In this document: in pieces, positions 2,862 to 20,003 of the stretch | Layout of the letters: every line of letters begins with the position of its first letter | How positions within the stretch are numbered: position 1 is the stretch's first letter | Virus genome (UHGV): UHGV-0106419 | Length of the DNA: 25,684 nt | DNA from: a virus | Reading direction: 5' to 3' (one strand) | Notes under the pieces: generated by a model | Database searches by the model: none | Told to the model about the DNA's origin: nothing | Seen by the model: only the letters and a program-made list of their open reading frames with translations | Position numbers and translations under genes: made by a program

Positions 2862-2937
2862 GGCCCTTTAGCTCAGTGGTTAGAGCAGGCGACTCATAAT
2901 CGCTTGGTCGCTGGTTCAAGTCCAGCAAGGGCCACCA
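2862..2937 (+). tRNA. ileY: tRNA-Ile2 (anticodon CAU, lysidine-type), 76 nt with encoded CCA
   Basis: Cloverleaf readable: acceptor GGCCCTT/AAGGGCC, D-arm AGCTCAGTGGTTAGAGC, anticodon loop CTCATAA (CAT at 2895-2897), T-arm GGTTCAAGTCC. Sequence matches the E. coli ileX/ileY type as recalled, rather than initiator or elongator tRNA-Met. Confidence 0.85.
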
Positions 2938-10817: not shown

Positions 10818-11717
10818 TTATGTCTGGATGTGGTCGTCAACACATCCTCTTTTAAATACAGGCGCTTTTACCTTAGTTGGATCATCTGTTTTAAAGATTT
10901 TCAATCGTTCACTGAAGAACATTACCTCAGATCCTTTGTACCGATCTTGAGCACTGTAGTTTATTCCATATACTAATGATGATGTCTTATACATAGCTTG
11001 GATCTCAGGAGTGTTATCGTAAGAAACAATCCAAGGTGTTTTAATATTATTCTGTACGACTTTTGCAACCCTAACATGATCATCATGATTATAATGGTTG
11101 ATATATAAACCTTTACCTTTTATGTAATAAGGTGGATCCAAATATGTTAATGAGTTTTGTGGCAATTGAATAACTATTTTTTTAATGAAATCAATTGCAT
11201 CCATGTTATATAAATCTATTCTGTGACGATTTTCTGATATTTTATGGATTCGAGAAATCAAATCACTCTTATTATAGCGAGCGTCAAGCTTCCATTTCCC
11301 TTCTTGATTTTTACCGCCAATTACTCCACCTTTTAATATTCCAGAACGATTTGTTCTATTGAGAAAAAAGGTTGAGAAACCAATTGTTAAAAGATCATGG
11401 TCTTTAGGATTATTAATTATATCTTTCTGCCTAAACCATTCATCCATTGTAACTTCAGTTCTTTCAATTAAAGAACATAATTGATCTGCATGATTTAATA
11501 CACTGTGCCAAAAAGCATAAACAGAAATATTAATATCATTAAGGATGATTTTTTCAGCTGCATTTAGATGTAACAGTTTCAATGCTAAACCAGCACCCCC
11601 AGCATATGGTTCGGCATAATGTATAGGCGAAAGATTATTTTCTTCAATAAGCCGAAGCATGAAATTTGCAAGCTTGCCTTTACCGCCAGGATAGCGAAGT
11701 GGGGTGTTAAAACGCAT
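10818..11717 (-). CDS. D12-class (Dam-family) N6-adenine DNA methyltransferase, 299 aa
   Basis: Motif I YAEPYAGGAG near the N-terminus and motif IV DPPYY at about residue 185, the alpha-class order. AGAGG RBS 7 nt upstream of the ATG. Confidence 0.8.
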   Translation of the reverse strand: MRFNTPLRYPGGKGKLANFMLRLIEENNLSPIHYAEPYAGGAGLALKLLHLNAAEKIILNDINISVYAFWHSVLNHADQLCSLIERTEVTMDEWFRQKDIINNPKDHDLLTIGFSTFFLNRTNRSGILKGGVIGGKNQEGKWKLDARYNKSDLISRIHKISENRHRIDLYNMDAIDFIKKIVIQLPQNSLTYLDPPYYIKGKGLYINHYNHDDHVRVAKVVQNNIKTPWIVSYDNTPEIQAMYKTSSLVYGINYSAQDRYKGSEVMFFSERLKIFKTDDPTKVKAPVFKRGCVDDHIQT

Positions 11718-11750
11718 ATGATACCTCTAAATGTCAGATCTAAAGTATAT

Positions 11751-11790
11751 CAAAAAAAGGGCTTTGTGGCCATCACATAAAGCCCTTTTT
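11751..11790 (-). terminator. Hairpin (AAAGGGCTTT...AAAGCCCTTT) with flanking T/A runs between the ATPase and MTase genes
   Basis: 10-bp stem read directly; U-run on both strands. Lies 7 nt downstream of the ATPase stop. Confidence 0.5.
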
Positions 11791-11796
11791 AATCAA

Positions 11797-13581
11797 TTAG
11801 TTATCTGACAGATATGATGAGATGGTAGCAGAATCGACACCATGTCCACTTGTCATAATAACTTTAAGACTCTTTATTAGTTCATTCTTGAAGCTATCCG
11901 ATTGCACAGGATTTTTCTCGACCCAATATCGATATGGGTTATCTTTAACTCGCCCTTTTACTTGGGCCTGAAATTGAGTCGTATGTGCAAAATCTTTAAA
12001 CAGTTTTCTAACTATCCCGCCATGGTTTTTGTTAACTTTTTTATAATTATCTATAAGGATTTTTAAATCAATCGGAGCGTTACCAATCTTTAGCGTTGCA
12101 ATTATGTCTTTAGCTGTTTTCATAAAAACAGCTTTTGTAAATTTATTTTTATTTTCCCAATATGCATCATCAGGTGGTAAATTATATAAAAACTCAAAAA
12201 TCATTTGGTCTGGAGGTAAGGTGCTTGGAAGCAAACATAAGTTTTTTTCTTTTTTGGCTTTTTTTGCATTAGCACTATTGTCGTGAACAACATCACCGTC
12301 TAAGACGATCAAGCTTTTAGCTGTAAATTCTGGTATTTTTCTTGCCATTAAGTCAAGCATGGCAGAGCAGCTAATATTTATATTCCCTAATGGATTTAAT
12401 ATTTTATTTATTTTTCGATCTGTTATCAATTGTTTGAAAAAGTCGAAACCTTCTTTGTCTTCAAAATATACATTTGCCTTTGGAAGACAAATGTCATCAT
12501 TAATTTTTACAGTTTCAACATGTAAATCAGCGTGGATATCTGTCCATGAAAGATTATTCTTTGTTTTAATATCTCCATATGTGTCTGTAAGATATATTGT
12601 TTTAAAGCTATCACTATCTTGTTTTGAACGATTATAGATATCCTCTATTATTAATGGAGAGTGCGAGGTCATGATTATTTGCAGATCGTATTGTTTTGCT
12701 GCTTTAGTTAGAATATTAATTAGCTCTAACTGTGCAGCAGGGAAAAGACCTGCATCGGCTTCATCAATTAACAATATTCCGCCATGATAATCAGAATAAG
12801 TTTCCTTCAATCTTTTAAATGAAAAAATTGCTTGGATTAATTGTCCAACATTATCTTCACCAACAGATACTGATTGGTGATCATAATTGTCACCATGGAC
12901 AACCATTGAATCGATAGTACCTTTTGTTGCTGTTACTGAGCTTCCATTGTTTTTTAGTAAGAGTTGGTTACTCATCATTCTAATTTCATCAGAATTTTCA
13001 TTGATGTACTGAACATCCCGTGTTGAGTAATCAGTCCTTAATGTAATAGGAAGAAGTCGTGCTAAGCTTAAAAAAATAACAGGATGAGTAACGTTTCTAC
13101 TTTGGTTTTTTTCCGGTATTGAATCATTTCCCCTGACTACAGGCCTTGATTTATCTCTGTCACTGTAGCTGTATAAACCTAATGTTAGTTTTTCAAGATG
13201 TTTGTTCGATGCACCATCATAGACACTAATTTTGACGTCCATTGAACCAGGAACATCAAATTGTTCTGAAAGCCTAAAATGTTCGCTGAAAGCTGACTTG
13301 AAGCTGCCATTTGTTAATGTTTTATATTGTGTTAAATCAGTCTCAGGGTTTTTGGTAAAGTCCTTTGTAAAGCTAAATATTTGGGCGATAATGCCAAGAA
13401 TTGTGGATTTAGATGTGCCATTTTTACCACAAATAACAGTTAGGCGAGAACCAAACTCGATGTTTATATTTTTCAGTCCGCGAAACTTCACAACATTTAT
13501 ATTTTTTAGTTTGGTAATTTGATTTGCCATGTTTCTATCTTGCTCCGTAAAATGGCCACAAATTGTGGCCAATAGTTTCAT
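11797..13581 (-). CDS. ABC-type ATPase with C-terminal TOPRIM-like domain (OLD-family-like nuclease); candidate defence/abortive-infection protein
   Basis: Walker A GKNGTSKST, Walker B ILLIDEADAG, H-loop MTSHSP. C-terminal YFEDKEGFDFF and IVLDGDV about 55 aa apart resemble the TOPRIM Glu and DxD motifs. An alternative start at 13530 (MANQ...) gives 577 aa. The first ATG is only 8 nt past the integrase stop. Confidence 0.65.
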   Translation of the reverse strand: MKLLATICGHFTEQDRNMANQITKLKNINVVKFRGLKNINIEFGSRLTVICGKNGTSKSTILGIIAQIFSFTKDFTKNPETDLTQYKTLTNGSFKSAFSEHFRLSEQFDVPGSMDVKISVYDGASNKHLEKLTLGLYSYSDRDKSRPVVRGNDSIPEKNQSRNVTHPVIFLSLARLLPITLRTDYSTRDVQYINENSDEIRMMSNQLLLKNNGSSVTATKGTIDSMVVHGDNYDHQSVSVGEDNVGQLIQAIFSFKRLKETYSDYHGGILLIDEADAGLFPAAQLELINILTKAAKQYDLQIIMTSHSPLIIEDIYNRSKQDSDSFKTIYLTDTYGDIKTKNNLSWTDIHADLHVETVKINDDICLPKANVYFEDKEGFDFFKQLITDRKINKILNPLGNINISCSAMLDLMARKIPEFTAKSLIVLDGDVVHDNSANAKKAKKEKNLCLLPSTLPPDQMIFEFLYNLPPDDAYWENKNKFTKAVFMKTAKDIIATLKIGNAPIDLKILIDNYKKVNKNHGGIVRKLFKDFAHTTQFQAQVKGRVKDNPYRYWVEKNPVQSDSFKNELIKSLKVIMTSGHGVDSATISSYLSDN

Positions 13582-13588
13582 GCTTGGA

Positions 13589-14755
13589 TTATATTGTTAT
13601 CTTCTTCAAGCTTGTTTGTCCATCATATTCCTTCAGATATGAGCCATAGTGCCTGAAAAGCATCTCAGGCCCTTTATGCCCCATTTGAGCTGCAAGCCAA
13701 AACAGGTTTGCTCCCCGGCTGATATGTCTGGTGGCGAATGTATGCCTGGTTTGATATGGGTTTCTGTAACGAATACCTGCTTTTCGCAATGTTGGCACCC
13801 ATGCTTTTTTCCTAATTGCATCAGCACTTGCCCAGGGTTTATTGGTCTTTGGATCTTCAAAGACAGTAGCATCCTTCATGAATGTAAATGGCTTCTGGTT
13901 TATCAACGCCAACATTGCTTCTTCAGTCAGTTCAACTTTACGGGTACCGGCTTTTGTCTTTGTTCCTTTGATAACTCCGACAACACTTGCGCTCTGAACA
14001 TGGGCTGTTTTTCCAACAAAGTCGATATCATGCCATCGTAGGGCACATAATTCAGAACTACGCAGGCCTGTATGTATGGCGAACCGGAACAGATTTTCCC
14101 ATTGTTTGTTTCCGGCTGCTGCTAGTAATGCATCAACTTCTGCTGGTGATAGCGGATCAACCACATAGCTGCTTTCTGCTTCTGACTTATCACTTTGGTA
14201 GCGCGAAGCAGTTACCAACGATACGGGGTTAATTTGAAGTACCCCATCGGTTACGGCTTCATCAAGTGCTGACCGCAGGAAAGATAACTGGTTGCGAATT
14301 GTTTTTAAGGTCGTTTTCTGGCTTTGAATCCACGCTTTCAGGATTGCTGGTGTTAATTCACTTGCAGGGCAAATGTGGAGTGAGGCTAACGCACTACGGC
14401 ATTTTTTATAACCACCAATCGTAGATGGTGAAAGTTTTCTCGTTTCGCAGATTTCAAGGTATTCGTCCAGGTACATTTTTACCGTTTTGCCTGCAGCAGC
14501 ATTACCAAAAATTTTCAAACGAGCAGAACGGGGAAAATATTCCGCATAAATGAATGTTCCCCTTTCGATCTTATTATGAATTTCGCCGAGTGTGCGCTCG
14601 GCGTATTTAATGTTCTTTGGTGTTACTTCCAGATTGGAAAGAGGCTCACGACATTTAACGCCTTTGTAGGTGAAAGTTATATTGATCGTTTCGCCCTGGC
14701 GGTGTTTCCTGATTGTTACGCCGCGCGGTAGTTTGAGCAGTTTTGTCTGGCCCAT
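13589..14755 (-). CDS. Phage integrase (tyrosine recombinase), 388 aa
   Basis: C-terminal catalytic region ...RHTFATRHISRGANLFWLAAQMGHKGPEMLFRHYGSY (R/H/Y residues) and N-terminal arm-binding-type domain. Overlaps the upstream xis-like ORF by 40 nt. Confidence 0.85.
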   Translation of the reverse strand: MGQTKLLKLPRGVTIRKHRQGETINITFTYKGVKCREPLSNLEVTPKNIKYAERTLGEIHNKIERGTFIYAEYFPRSARLKIFGNAAAGKTVKMYLDEYLEICETRKLSPSTIGGYKKCRSALASLHICPASELTPAILKAWIQSQKTTLKTIRNQLSFLRSALDEAVTDGVLQINPVSLVTASRYQSDKSEAESSYVVDPLSPAEVDALLAAAGNKQWENLFRFAIHTGLRSSELCALRWHDIDFVGKTAHVQSASVVGVIKGTKTKAGTRKVELTEEAMLALINQKPFTFMKDATVFEDPKTNKPWASADAIRKKAWVPTLRKAGIRYRNPYQTRHTFATRHISRGANLFWLAAQMGHKGPEMLFRHYGSYLKEYDGQTSLKKITI

Positions 14756-15197: not shown

Positions 15198-15556
15198 TTT
15201 TTATTCTCCGGTGCTTTCGGCATTACTGCCCAGTGGGTAATATTGACGTTTTCAAGGTCCCCGACCTGAAATGTCCACTGCCATTCTCCGGTTTCTTTTT
15301 GCCCCCATGTGTACCAGAGAGAACGCCAGCCAATCAGCCAGCCTTCTCCATTAGCATCAAATAACAGAACACTTTCATGTGCTGGCGGCAGTTCAGCTGA
15401 CACTGGTATTACTTTGTTTTCCAGTGCTGCACATTTAGCTTCAAGCGCATCGAATTTACGTATCAGGTATTCAGCATCCGTTTCATTCACTTTCAGATCT
15501 CGCGGTACACATTTCCCGCGAAGAAACCCTTCCATTTCGAAAACATTCATGCGCAT
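15194..15556 (-). CDS. Hypothetical phage early protein (120 aa), Trp-rich C-terminus
   Basis: ORF in the early-left operon overlapping the HD-hydrolase gene end; no motif recognised. Confidence 0.45.
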   Translation of the reverse strand: MRMNVFEMEGFLRGKCVPRDLKVNETDAEYLIRKFDALEAKCAALENKVIPVSAELPPAHESVLLFDANGEGWLIGWRSLWYTWGQKETGEWQWTFQVGDLENVNITHWAVMPKAPENKK

Positions 15557-16083
15557 TTGCGTAACTCCGATAACTCGTTGAAGCGCTCAATAAACATCCC
15601 GTAGGCATGGCTCGGTGCCAGTGGAATCACGTTGAACATCTCTGTTGCCGGGATACCTTCCAGTACAGGCCAGAAAGAGCCATCATCAAGCCCGAGATCG
15701 CGGCGTTCGGTTGCCAGCATGATGAGATCGGCATATTTCACAGGCGTGCTCATAACCGTGGGTAACCCGTATTTCTCACGGATTACGGCGTCTATTTTTT
15801 CTTCCATCCGTTTATAGTCGGGAAGAAGGCGTTTCAGTGGCGCGGGGATGTCCTGGCAATACGCTTCTGTCGCATCATGCATTAACGCTTCAAAAGCAAA
15901 TTCCTGCGGTACCAGCTGGCTGCAAAGCACCGCATGTTGGGCGACGCTGTAGAAGTGTGAAAGATGGCCGGCAAAGCGACAGATATTTGAAAGGGAAACC
16001 GCGATATCGTTAATATCGATGTTGTCTTTATTTATCCTGTCATAATAAAAATGCTTCCCGGAAAAAGTTTTAATAAATGACAT
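15547..16083 (-). CDS. HD-domain phosphohydrolase (YfbR-like 5'-deoxynucleotidase family), 178 aa
   Basis: H...HD metal-binding pattern (SVAQHAV ... ALMHDATEAY). Start placed at MSFIKTF (ATG 16083) with GGAGAA RBS; the ORF-track start at 16143 is an unsupported extension. Confidence 0.65.
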   Translation of the reverse strand: MSFIKTFSGKHFYYDRINKDNIDINDIAVSLSNICRFAGHLSHFYSVAQHAVLCSQLVPQEFAFEALMHDATEAYCQDIPAPLKRLLPDYKRMEEKIDAVIREKYGLPTVMSTPVKYADLIMLATERRDLGLDDGSFWPVLEGIPATEMFNVIPLAPSHAYGMFIERFNELSELRKCA

Positions 16084-16564
16084 TTTGTTCTCCACGTTAT
16101 ATGCGCTGCACCGCGCTGAATTCGGGTAAAAGGAAGCCCTCACCGTCCGGCGATTATTGAGTCAATTACATTTCCATAAATGCCCCCGTAGGGGCGGTTA
16201 GTTTCTCCACAAAACAGAGAAGAACACCTGCGGTGGCAGCCGCCCGGATGGATTGGGTTATGAGCCCGTCGTCCGATGATGCTCTTCTCTGTTTTGTAAA
16301 AAGGACGGTACCAGCCGGAAGCAAGGGTACAAGCTGGTACCGCCAAGACAACACACAGCATAAAGTTGTGGTGCCGGGTGCCTCCCGGTGCCTGGCGAAG
16401 GTTGTACACCAGACGGGTGGGTATCCACAGAAGGTCGACTGTCAGCCTTAACCTTAACCCGCGTGCGCTGAGCCGCATTCACCACAACGCTAAGGATTCT
16501 CTCTGGTTGAAAATACTTAGCTGTTATGTGCCTGCTTTTAGCCACATCAGGCGAGGTGGACCTG

Positions 16565-16600
16565 GTTATTCCCCAACAACAAGGATTCGGTATAATCTGG
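16565..16600 (+). promoter_or_regulatory. Candidate promoter for the micro-ORF/SieB-like operon (consensus -10 TATAAT at 16591-16596)
   Basis: Exact TATAAT about 33 nt upstream of the first micro-ORF; the -35 is poor (TTATTC). Confidence 0.3.
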
Positions 16601-16628
16601 ATATCCCAACAACAGGTAGGAAGGAAAT

Positions 16629-16712
16629 ATGTACGTAGATAGCAATGAAAAATTTCATGTTCCGGTAAATCAGAGACCAGCACCGATCCCTGAGCCGAAA
16701 CCTGAAATGTAA
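16629..16712 (+). CDS. Micro-ORF A (27 aa): MYVDSNEKFHVPVNQRPAPIPEPKPEM
   Basis: ATG preceded by AGGAAGGA RBS; shares the H-x-P...RP-x-P-x-PEPKP motif with micro-ORFs B and C; ends 10 nt before the SieB-like start. Confidence 0.4.
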   Translation: MYVDSNEKFHVPVNQRPAPIPEPKPEM

Positions 16713-16722
16713 GGGAATAGAG

Positions 16723-17202
16723 ATGACTCGAGACGATCTAGCATTCGATATTCATTATTCTTTCTTTCTTGAGAAAATGAATTACACCCTTTTAAATCGG
16801 ATAGACAAGAGCATAACTCTTGTTCTCATTGTCTTGGGCTTTTCTGTTTTTGCGCCATATAGCAATATGTTTATTTTTGGCGCATCTGTAGCTATTTTGT
16901 CGGTGCTTCAATTGGTATACCAATTTGGGCAGGAAGCTGGCTTATCAAAGGAACAGATGCGACAGTATAAAAGGTTGATTGTTGAGTTTTCCTCCCTTTC
17001 TGATGACGAACTACGCACTCGGTTTTTAAAGGTTCAAGACGCTGATAGTAATCCATGGAGATCTTTACAAGATGCTGCGTTCAAACGGACCTGTATTGCG
17101 CTGGGACGTGTTGATGAGTCAGAAATATCATTCATGCATAGCGTTATCGCATGGTTTGCTGGAGATTTGCCTCGGTCAAAAAGGTGTAATAATGACAAAT
17201 AG
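16723..17202 (+). CDS. SieB-like small membrane protein (159 aa), putative superinfection exclusion
   Basis: Two adjacent hydrophobic segments (ITLVLIVLGFSVFAPY, MFIFGASVAILSVLQLVY). Encoded opposite to the pL operon next to the cI-like repressor, as sieB is in lambda and Rac. AGGGA RBS. Confidence 0.45.
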   Translation: MTRDDLAFDIHYSFFLEKMNYTLLNRIDKSITLVLIVLGFSVFAPYSNMFIFGASVAILSVLQLVYQFGQEAGLSKEQMRQYKRLIVEFSSLSDDELRTRFLKVQDADSNPWRSLQDAAFKRTCIALGRVDESEISFMHSVIAWFAGDLPRSKRCNNDK

Positions 17203-17402: not shown

Positions 17403-17537
17403 GTGTTGGGGATCTCCAGATTGTTAAAGAGCGAAGCGTCCTATAGGGCGCTTTTTTGTTGCTAACGAATCATCCTGGACTTCATATGCCCCAGGCGGCT
17501 ACTTCGTGGGCGTCCTACCTGTTCGTTGTTTCTCTTG

Positions 17538-17570
17538 GGTACATTATGTATCTCAAAGGTACATTGTCAA
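17538..17570 (-). promoter_or_regulatory. pL-like promoter with overlapping operator half-sites (GGTACA / TGTACC)
   Basis: On the minus strand: -35 TTGACA (17565-17570), 16-bp spacer, -10 CATAAT (17543-17548); GGTACA half-sites at 17538 and 17559. Confidence 0.4.
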
Positions 17571-17609: not shown

Positions 17610-18284
17610 TTAGGCTTTGATTTTGTATCTTCTTGGTTTTCCTGAGAAAATCACTGTACCAATTATAGAGCAATTACCGTTGATCTTAATGTAAGGTTCA
17701 GGCCAGTTTGGGTTTAATGCTTTGAGGTAACGCTGTGTTCCATCTTCTATCAACCGCTTGAAGGTGGTTTCGCCTGTATCGTGCATCAATGCAATAACGT
17801 CGTCACCGTGGCAGGCAGGGACTTCAGGATCAACAAAAATCATGTCTCCCGGGCGGTACTCATCAATCATTGAATCACCAATCACCCGCAAGATATAAGT
17901 CATTTCGCCACAGGGTACAGGGCAGGGGTAAGTTTCTGCTGTGCTCAAATCAACCTCAGAATAGCCAACTTCTTTCCATGCTCCGGCCTGTACCCATGAT
18001 ATGACAGGGACTAACGTTATTTGTTTGTTAGTGATTGAAACATCAGGTTTTTTTGTGATGTTCGTGGTCTGGTGTTCTTGATCAAGCCATCCGACAGGCA
18101 GGTCGAAACATTTTTCGATGTGCCGCGCCATGCTGTCACCGATATTTTTAGTAGCACCATCTCCCATAAACCTGCTGGTCTGGGTTGGCTCGCGATCAAT
18201 CATAGTGGCAAAGGAAGAATTCCCGCCAACACCATCTCTCAGTTTTCTGGCGTTAGACCGCCGGATGTCATGGATTGTTTTCAT
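17610..18284 (-). CDS. cI-like prophage repressor (N-terminal HTH, C-terminal S24 LexA-like peptidase domain), 224 aa
   Basis: S24 motifs GDSM (Ser nucleophile) and downstream Lys (FKRL); divergent from the cro-like gene; operator repeats on both sides. Confidence 0.8.
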   Translation of the reverse strand: MKTIHDIRRSNARKLRDGVGGNSSFATMIDREPTQTSRFMGDGATKNIGDSMARHIEKCFDLPVGWLDQEHQTTNITKKPDVSITNKQITLVPVISWVQAGAWKEVGYSEVDLSTAETYPCPVPCGEMTYILRVIGDSMIDEYRPGDMIFVDPEVPACHGDDVIALMHDTGETTFKRLIEDGTQRYLKALNPNWPEPYIKINGNCSIIGTVIFSGKPRRYKIKA

Positions 18285-18606: not shown

Positions 18607-19170
18607 ATGAGGCTAACCGTGGGTAAGTATCACTGGAAAGTAGAAAAACAGCCTGAGTGGTACGTGAAAGCTGTCAGAAAAACTATCGCAGCGTTGCCGG
18701 GTGGTTACGCTGAAGCAGCTGACTGGCTGGATGTAACAGAGAACGCATTATTTAACCGCCTTCGTGCCGATGGCGATCAGATTTTCCCGCTGGGATGGGC
18801 AATGGTTTTACAGCGCGCGGCTGGCACTCACTACATTGCGGATGCTGTCGCACAGTCTGCTGGTGGGGTGTTCGTATCGCTTCCTGAAATTGAGGAAGTA
18901 GAGAACGCCGATATAAACCAGCGCCTGCTGGAAGTCATCGAACAGATCGGGAATTACTCAAAGCAGATTCGTTCGGCAATCGAAGATGGGGTCGTGGAGC
19001 CACACGAGCAGACAGCAATTAATGATGAGTTGTATCTGTCAATTTCGAAGCTCCAGGAACATGCAGCACTGGTCTACAAAATCTTTTGCGCTCCAGAAAA
19101 GAGTGACGCCCGCGAGTGTGCAGCTCCGGGCGTCGTGGCGTTTTGTGTCTGTGGAGAAACTAACGCATGA
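18607..19170 (+). CDS. YdaT-like / CII-like regulatory protein (187 aa)
   Basis: Position immediately after the cro-like gene, as in Rac ydaS-ydaT; family assignment from memory. An alternative GTG start at 18619 has a better RBS. Confidence 0.45.
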   Translation: MRLTVGKYHWKVEKQPEWYVKAVRKTIAALPGGYAEAADWLDVTENALFNRLRADGDQIFPLGWAMVLQRAAGTHYIADAVAQSAGGVFVSLPEIEEVENADINQRLLEVIEQIGNYSKQIRSAIEDGVVEPHEQTAINDELYLSISKLQEHAALVYKIFCAPEKSDARECAAPGVVAFCVCGETNA

Positions 19171-20003
19171 ACAGTTTAACGGCAAATAACCGTTTGTCGC
19201 AACAGCTGGTGGTCAGTGTCGCTGAACACCTGTTGTTACGGCATGAATGCAGATTACCAAATCTCCTGGCTGTAAGTAACCACAGAGAACTTTACCTGAC
19301 TGTGGGGGGCGAGTTGTGCAGGAACTTAACCGCTGGTTTCGTGACGGAAGAGGACTTTATGTTCATGTTATTCGTTGGGAGCCAGAAACACAGCGCGTTA
19401 TCTATCTTCGCAAAGACTACCCGCATGAGTGCTTTAGTCCTTTGTGGAAATTCAGGCGTGATTTTGTTGAGTGTGAAGGACCACCAGCACATTGATTCTG
19501 CCATTCCGGGACGTTACACTGTTCAGGCACCTTATAAAGCGGGTGCCGGGATTGGCGTCCTGGAATTGATCAAGGCGATATATGACGCGCCAGCGTCTTT
19601 TTTATCGTCCGCATTTGCTCACATCAAAGTTATGGTGGGCTGGGCGGGGGCATCGAAAGATGCGCCGGTTTCCTTGATCACCGGTTACGCCAACCCCGTT
19701 CAGTTCACCACCAGCGAAATTGGCGTTTCCGGTGGTGGAAGTATTTCACCGATCAAGGAGGCTGCCATCATGGCTACTGTCCCAGCCCTCACTCGTCTGA
19801 ATGATGAAGACTTACATAAACTCAGTTATGTAACAACTGCACTACGTGCTCTGCGCAAGGTAACTCTTTCGGATCCGCAGGCACATCAGGTTCTGGTAGA
19901 AACCCTTCTTAACTTGCAAGCTGAACGTATTCGTCTGGCGGATAAGGCTAATTTTCATATTCACCGTCTCCTGAATATCAGCGGAGGGCATCGTCATGCT
20001 TAA
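19167..20003 (+). CDS. Hypothetical phage protein (278 aa) in the replication module
   Basis: ATGA start/stop overlap with the upstream gene; no motif recognised. Confidence 0.5.
   Translation: MNSLTANNRLSQQLVVSVAEHLLLRHECRLPNLLAVSNHRELYLTVGGELCRNLTAGFVTEEDFMFMLFVGSQKHSALSIFAKTTRMSALVLCGNSGVILLSVKDHQHIDSAIPGRYTVQAPYKAGAGIGVLELIKAIYDAPASFLSSAFAHIKVMVGWAGASKDAPVSLITGYANPVQFTTSEIGVSGGGSISPIKEAAIMATVPALTRLNDEDLHKLSYVTTALRALRKVTLSDPQAHQVLVETLLNLQAERIRLADKANFHIHRLLNISGGHRHA

Follow-up and report, generated by a model that had tools for sequence, protein, structure and literature searches.

The window, a stretch of 25,684 nt from the virus genome UHGV-0106419, is an E. coli lambdoid prophage of the SfV/SfII/e14 type. 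The block considered here (16084-16628) is located, according to the ORF list and annotation, between the yfdR-like gene that heads the leftward run of genes and a pair of rightward genes, with the repressor gene further right (Table 1). In Pfam and PHROG searches the 159-aa protein of the rightward pair has no Pfam family and a single match, phrog_6315, whose function is unknown; the label "SieB-like", given to this operon in an earlier sequence-only reading, thus finds no confirmation. A hydrophobic 30-aa ORF (16566-16658, minus strand) overlaps the 27-aa ORF on the opposite strand, and the orientation of neighbouring ORFs, taken from crude calls, was uninformative. Further to the left, a DNA adenine methylase gene and an AAA-family ATPase gene (window ~10818-13530) are flanked by two integrase genes (intA on the upstream side, the one at 13589..14755 on the other), an arrangement suggestive of a small island or of two elements integrated side by side. 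A tRNA gene scoring 74 bits is found at 2862-2934 (+).

The GC content is 0.52-0.575 over 16100-16500, with flanking values of 0.42 (left) and 0.36-0.44 (right), and the ORF list shows ORFs overlapping on both strands, in agreement with the sequence-only reading. Both repeats that it pointed out are present and both can be lengthened: the 15-nt perfect inverted repeat ACAAAACAGAGAAGA (16209-16223, with its complement at 16283-16297) to 25-nt arms with 84% complementarity (16209-16233/16273-16297), and the 10-bp hairpin CGGTACCAGC/GCTGGTACCG (16306-16315/16333-16342) to the 13-bp stem of the terminator T1 (-23 kcal/mol, z -4.8). On the minus strand the segment 16180-16530 (351 nt) reaches -152 kcal/mol (z -7.3, none of 100 shuffles being as good), compared with -145 kcal/mol (z -4.7) on the plus strand. 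The functional strand of the block is the minus strand.

The description of 16084-16628 as one block holds for its structured core and fails at its margins, as ~16560-16628 is a rightward promoter-like site with an RBS and 16084-16196 is an ordinary 5' UTR. The TTCCCC-16-TATAAT sequence, read by eye and below the threshold of the promoter scan, is a putative promoter of the rightward operon. The segment 16084-16196 shows no excess fold stability in the shuffle comparison (z +0.4), and in the alignment it is common only to SfII-type phages.

Table 1. Features of the block and its surroundings (positions in the window)
Feature	Position	Strand	Remarks
Integrase gene	13589..14755	minus	end of the leftward run, with an excisionase-like ORF
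yfdR-like 5'-deoxynucleotidase gene	15547..16083	minus	first gene of the leftward run; annotation in an identical strain
5' UTR of the yfdR-like gene	16084..16196	minus	gene start ATG at 16083; small GC hairpin 16182-16195
RBS-like module end UGUGGAGAAACUAAC	16197..16211	minus	different phages carry different first genes downstream
89-nt hairpin	16297..16209	minus	20-bp outer stem, three-way junction at the tip; 3' arm ends UUUUGU
Intrinsic terminator T1	16298..16344	minus	13-bp stem 16344-16332/16316-16304, then U5 (16302-16298)
Single-stranded linker UUUAUGCUGUGUGUUGUCUU, 20 nt	16345..16364	minus	between domain and terminator
STnc100-superfamily domain, 124 nt	16488..16365	minus	multi-helix with pseudoknot; Rfam, own model, covariation
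P1	GUUGUGGUG 16488-16480/CACCACAAC 16373-16365	minus	closing helix
P2 hairpin	16476-16461	minus	
Pseudoknot 5' strand AAGGUU	16455-16450	minus	pairs with the P4 loop
P3 region	between the pseudoknot 5' strand and P4	minus	variable
P4 hairpin	16414-16390	minus	loop AACCUU (16403-16398) pairs with 16455-16450
P5 hairpin CCGGG-AGGCA-CCCGG	16388-16374	minus	
Invariant 22-mer CACCGGGAGGCACCCGGCACCA	16390-16369	minus	exact in the window
Upstream leader	16489..16560	minus	kept in SfV, SfII, e14 (alignment); hairpin CUAAG...CUUAG abuts P1 (MFE fold)
Promoter-like TTCCCC-16-TATAAT (~16569-16596) and RBS AGGAAGGA	16561..16628	plus	rightward small ORF and 159-aa gene
27-aa ORF	16630-16713	plus	strong RBS AGGAAGGA; precedes the 159-aa gene
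159-aa gene	16723-17202	plus	second gene of the rightward pair
LexA-like repressor gene	17610..18284	minus	Peptidase_S24; a CII-like gene also lies further right of the block

The STnc100-superfamily domain

The 124-nt domain in the core of the block is homologous to the small RNA STnc100 (RF02076) and is a divergent member of the STnc100/PasD superfamily. An Rfam scan, one of the checks proposed together with the sequence-only reading, gives a minus-strand match to STnc100 at 16518..16295 with 40.4 bits (E 3.5e-7, permissive scan of a 901-nt search), which is below the RF02076 gathering threshold of 47 bits. Matches at the same position, also sub-threshold, are found in SfV (39.5 bits), phiES15 (40.6) and ST64B (35.1), and the e14 copy of K-12 has no Rfam match at E <= 0.01. 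ARAGORN finds no tRNA or tmRNA in the block. The domain itself folds with -52.3 kcal/mol (z -2.4).

IMG/VR was scanned for a shared 18-mer, yielding 116 unique stretches. The covariance model R1 consists of 23 canonical STnc100 domains and contains no window-type sequence; the six of its source loci that were tested are each confirmed as RF02076 at 69-132 bits. With R1 the window is detected at 16487..16366 (65 bits, E ~6e-14, by a rough calibration), and e14, ST64B and phiES15 score 51, 63 and 71 bits, respectively. All R1 helices pair in the window without non-canonical marks, and in P2 the window has GCGGC/GC.CGC instead of the canonical CCCCC/GG.GGG, a fully compensatory swap with the loop type kept. 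The mEp460 and L205 types of the unit are missed by R1 at E <= 1, so the superfamily is wider than either model, that of Rfam or R1.

In comparison with STnc100 (including EcOnc27/sRNA103 downstream of stx2), the window has the same P1 UGGUG/CACCA followed by AAU, the P2 hairpin with a YNNGC loop, the P4 hairpin, the same P5 and the exact 22-mer, then a linker and, within 20-60 nt after the domain, an intrinsic terminator; the location in a prophage is also shared. Besides the Rfam score and the replaced P2 sequence, the differences are that no promoter abuts P1 in the window, that its unit lies in the early-left leader while canonical copies are late-region neighbours of tRNA, Q, stx or lysis genes, and that the window adds the 89-nt hairpin and the RBS-like boundary. 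STnc100 copies are expressed in EHEC lysogens, one of them being confirmed by Northern blot (PMC5331693), and EcOnc27, an sRNA bound by Hfq, overlaps the copy that lies downstream of stx2 (PMC12711010). PasD, detected by Hfq RIL-seq, is related to STnc100; PasD1 and PasD2 of EPEC are, like the window unit, prophage-encoded and, by their description, structurally STnc100-related, differing in context (Q antiterminator and lpxR) (bioRxiv 10.64898/2026.05.13.724894). The sRNAs svsR (PMC12803456), C0293 and PasB were considered as the identity of the block and rejected, being different loci.

The helices covary across 55 family members. Standard pairs are formed in 92.5% of cells (78.7% in shuffled alignments), 22 of 30 base pairs are changed on both sides (shuffled mean 15.0), and the covariation score is 0.394, compared with 0.140 for shuffled alignments (0 of 500 reaching the observed value) and 0.035-0.10 for slid controls; the alignment (A4) was fitted to the model helices, which inflates pairing for those helices and not for the pseudoknot. 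The latter is formed by the strand just after P2 and the loop of P4, and all six of its pairs covary. About 30 different pairings are found in this position across the family (e.g. CCAGUC/GACUGG and CUGGUG/CACCGG, with AAGGUU/AACCUU in the window), and the complementarity of the two strands, measured free of register, averages 6.98 nt against 4.87 nt in swapped controls (maximum 5.37 in 500). The pseudoknot is absent both from the model and from the consensus line of RF02076, and is a well-supported addition to the structure of the STnc100 family.

Distribution and coding status

The DNA of the block is identical or nearly identical in many E. coli genomes, and part of it is present in 2776 of 5426 complete genomes. 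Its most widespread piece is query 101-263 (window 16184-16346), comprising the terminator, the long hairpin and the boundary. The unit is always located directly upstream of the first early-left gene, whichever that gene is, as seen in SfV, SfII, mEp460, Stx2a_1447, ST64B, phiES15 and e14; in the window this gene is yfdR-like, and in e14 xis-int follow directly. The mEp460/Stx2a_1447, L173/L191 and L205/L226 types have different interiors but retain P1, the linker or T1, and the hairpin, only ~43 nt being left inside P1 in L205.

This DNA has been annotated as protein-coding. The K-12 homologue (88% identity) is ymfH (b1142), just upstream of xisE-intE in e14, the SfII homologue is SfII_35, and the PGAP annotation of a strain with the identical sequence has a frameshifted pseudo-CDS (window 16166-16485). 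Moreover, an expression clone of ymfH (K-12 e14, L002 5070-5381) triggered the retron-Sen2 toxin RcaT in a screen (bioRxiv 10.1101/2020.06.22.160242). All this would agree with a protein-coding gene of a YmfH family, inactivated here by a frameshift, but such a gene can hardly be reconciled with the pattern of changes. Substitutions are distributed evenly over the codon positions of the 112-aa frame (21/20/19 in e14 and 960/1172/1177 over all variants), with no excess in third positions, and 1-nt indels are frequent among the variants. An intact protein gene in the homologues, named by the sequence-only reading as evidence against an RNA, is not what they contain: the 112-aa ORF is intact in only ~7-10 of 77 variants, frame and length are unconserved, and the other variants have unrelated ORFs. 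The ORF matches no Pfam or PHROG family, and the covariation of the RNA accounts for the same DNA. As the ORF shows no coding constraint, the retron-triggering effect of the clone may come from the RNA, which could equally produce the phenotype seen in the screen.

The "structured ncRNA" of the sequence-only reading is therefore borne out by the STnc100 homology, the covariation and the lack of coding constraint, and the DNA annotated as ymfH, SfII_35 or the PGAP pseudogene is most likely a non-coding RNA unit misannotated as a protein gene. Hence a sequence found at least partly in about half of complete E. coli genomes, under the name of a hypothetical protein or ymfH, would be a structured RNA, and the STnc100/PasD family is extended to the early-left leader of SfV/e14/ST64B-like phages.

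The same reading had also offered the decayed remains of an inserted element as an explanation. A remnant of a mobile element, or functionless filler, would be consistent with the mosaic nature of the block, in which query 101-263 occurs with several different upstream domains, and with a GC content unlike that of the flanks. It is nevertheless improbable, since the sequence retains 95-99% identity in thousands of genomes and compensatory changes keep the structure in diverged phages, such conservation extending over about half of complete E. coli genomes and phages of Salmonella, Cronobacter and Klebsiella. No transposase, terminal repeats or target duplication were seen in the ORF list and the repeat search.

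Linker, terminator and long hairpin

Though differing in their terminators, e14, ST64B, phiES15 (from Cronobacter) and L205 share the linker core UGCUGUGUG(U/A)AGUCUU, and the linker (including UGCUGUGUGUAGUCUU) is a candidate seed or Hfq-proximal segment. A search of the phage DNA analysed for targets of such a seed gave no convincing target, only the trivial antisense self-match. The T1 stem is replaced compensatorily by GUCGGCGUC/GACGCCGAC in ST64B and by GGUGCC/GGCACC in L173 and L211. After the stem, the variants always have C(C/U)CUUUUUAC, and both ST64B and L173 continue with the same CCUUUUUAC.

The 89-nt hairpin that follows folds with -42 kcal/mol. Across 48 variants it is 97% paired, and its 20-bp outer stem 99% paired. 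Three of its pairs change on both sides and the covariation is 0.069 versus 0.048, with 0 of 500 shuffles reaching it, the number of independent changes being small in an alignment that is 91% identical. In particular, GAGAAG/CUUCUC becomes GAAAAG/CUUUUC in ST64B and GACAAG/CUUGUC in L205, and the tip helix has three different sequences among the variants. The outer stem has the length of near-continuous duplex (~20 bp or more) of an RNase III substrate, and the hairpin is a candidate RNase III site and/or second terminator, judging by its predicted fold.

Long inverted repeats and a conserved module ending at a sharp recombination boundary could also belong to an element acting as DNA, i.e. 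a cruciform, a palindrome bound by a protein, an origin or a recombination site. G-U cells in the hairpin, however, outnumber A-C cells 71 to 18, which favours minus-strand RNA: two stem positions are mostly G-U on the minus strand, and would be A-C mismatches in DNA or in plus-strand RNA. Moreover, a pseudoknot and covariation of several helices are features of a single strand, and a role as DNA is very improbable.

At the end of the module the variants diverge exactly after GGAGAAAC(Y)AA(Y). A 15-mer identical to the RBS-like end is found at 19150-19164 (+), in the Shine-Dalgarno region of ymfM/orf37-type genes, and from sequence comparison we read this coincidence as marking a module boundary rather than a regulatory pair. 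In particular, a nut- or put-like pair was rejected, as the two copies vary independently (in mEp460 one has C and the other T).

Transcription of the unit and its possible role

Canonical STnc100 genes have sigma-70 promoters (of the TTGACA-17-TAAATT type), with the start 5-8 nt before GGUGAAU. The promoter scan and site comparison revealed no such promoter 5' of P1 in the window, ST64B, phiES15, L019 and L095, and judging by these sites the window-type copies form a promoter-less STnc100 subfamily in the leader of the early-left operon. Given that the window has no canonical sigma-70 promoter, the RNA might exist only within the pL transcript rather than as the product of an independent sRNA gene. 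The best leftward promoter in the scan is TTGACA-16-CATAAT at 17570..17543 (-), just after the terminator of the repressor gene; on either side of it are GGTACA repeats of the kind present at the rightward operator. As the subfamily has no promoter at P1, transcripts reaching the unit probably start at this repressor-controlled site; they would cross the 159-aa gene in antisense and arrive at the unit after ~1 kb.

Just downstream of this promoter there is a ~65-nt leader (AACAGGUAGGACGCCCACGAAGUAGCCGCCUGGGGCAUAUGAAGUCCAGGAUGAUUCG, 17466-17530, minus strand), conserved in SfV, e14, SfII and ST64B, the last having different operators. It is present in 49 phage records (Yersinia, Pectobacterium, Pantoea, Citrobacter, Klebsiella), where it is never annotated, and covariation is seen in its hairpin (CCUGG/CCAGG, CCGGU/ACCGG, CCCGGU/ACCGGG). 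Neither an Rfam match nor similarity to HK022 was found, and by its sequence and position the leader may be considered a candidate nut/put-like element. A hairpin at ~17419-17454 (-), which is the terminator of the rightward gene read backwards, is followed by CGCUCUUUAACAAUCU, which resembles the rrn/lambdoid boxA. This boxA-like sequence (CGCUCUUUAAC, ~17434..17419, minus strand) lies outside the block and may be due to chance, since it is absent from SfV, e14 and ST64B. No N-like ORF is present in the ORF list between 17540 and 16630 on the minus strand, and no boxB was identified.

Taken together, we consider the block to be a module of an Hfq-type sRNA and its terminator embedded in the leader of the early-left operon, with a probability of about 60%. 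Most leftward transcripts would end at T1, releasing an RNA of ~200 nt, or a processed form of it. With its 5' domain structured, its linker exposed and its terminator ending in a U tail, such an RNA would have the standard build of an Hfq-dependent base-pairing sRNA. The early-left genes would then be expressed only by RNA polymerase reading through both T1 and the hairpin, and the long duplex is a possible target of RNase III, whose cleavage here would detach the downstream mRNA or lower its stability. If the RNA acts in trans, it is a widespread and unstudied regulator, present also in K-12.

A considerably less likely, though serious, explanation is that the unit acts purely in cis as an attenuator, the domain, T1 and the hairpin forming a tL1-like transcription barrier in the pL leader. 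Such a barrier would be passed only by polymerase modified upstream, e.g. at the ~65-nt element after pL, and the RNA released by termination would have no function in trans, being a by-product. The lack of a promoter at P1 in the subfamily, the constant position before the first early-left gene, the succession of two terminator-like hairpins and the conserved, covarying leader element right after the pL-like promoter (49 phage records from many genera) all agree with it. On the other hand, neither the pseudoknotted domain of 124 nt, with its invariant 22-mer, nor the conserved linker is needed for a plain barrier, while the canonical relatives are stand-alone units, from promoter to terminator, that accumulate as sRNAs (PMC5331693). 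A riboswitch-type switch is also unlikely, as the variants, read by eye, showed the invariant 3' strand of the domain in no conserved alternative pairing with the varied terminator stems. As for the sequence-only reading, which had proposed a regulatory or antitermination element of the pL operon, a regulatory role is plausible given the position in the leader and the strong terminator, while antitermination by the block itself is unsupported and disfavoured, since the family has discrete terminated sRNAs.

More speculatively, the P1-closed, cloverleaf-like pseudoknotted domain might be more than an sRNA scaffold and specifically bind a partner, be it a protein, the ribosome, RNA polymerase or enzymes of tRNA processing. 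In the promoter-less subfamily, the domain, T1 and the long hairpin would jointly form a regulated gate in the pL transcript, on which expression of the early-left genes (xis-int in e14) would depend. Canonical copies adjoin phage tRNA genes and sometimes form tandem arrays. Gating of early-left transcription by the unit would bear on excision and early-gene control in N-less lambdoid prophages. Among the loci L017 2265-3380, L026 342-1038, L011 8044-8560 and L110 2498-2812 there are arrays of canonical STnc100 genes (four copies in L017, three in L026) and genes immediately adjoining phage tRNA genes (with a gap of 38 nt in L110).

Among the known leaders, that of lambda pL contains the tL1 terminator, an RNase III site in the N leader and nutL, and read-through is needed for expression. 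In the window, too, pL is separated from the early-left genes by a terminator and a long duplex that would have to be read through; the differences are that no N-like gene or boxB was identified and that the sole boxA-like sequence is window-specific and outside the block. The put RNA of HK022, a cis-acting antiterminator, is likewise a structured RNA in the early operon of an N-less lambdoid phage. Unlike put, which has paired copies close behind pL and pR, the unit is present in one copy only, with none in the pR operon, and ~1 kb away from pL; moreover, members of its family terminate at their own terminators. Homology to put was rejected, as no sequence similarity to HK022 24000-31000 was found.

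SfV is said to have a "transcription-termination-mediated immunity", reportedly described by Roberts et al. in 2007. The block was rejected as the element responsible, since the SfV "immunity region", orf37, coincides with isrK and C4 RNA in the pR operon and not with the block. Downstream of the CII-like gene in the pR operon, the window has isrK (64 bits) at 19527-19603 (+) and the C4 antisense RNA (82 bits) at 19628-19715 (+). The pair is also present inside SfV orf37, in ST64B and in Stx2a_1447, and probably constitutes the immunity system based on RNA that has been reported for SfV.
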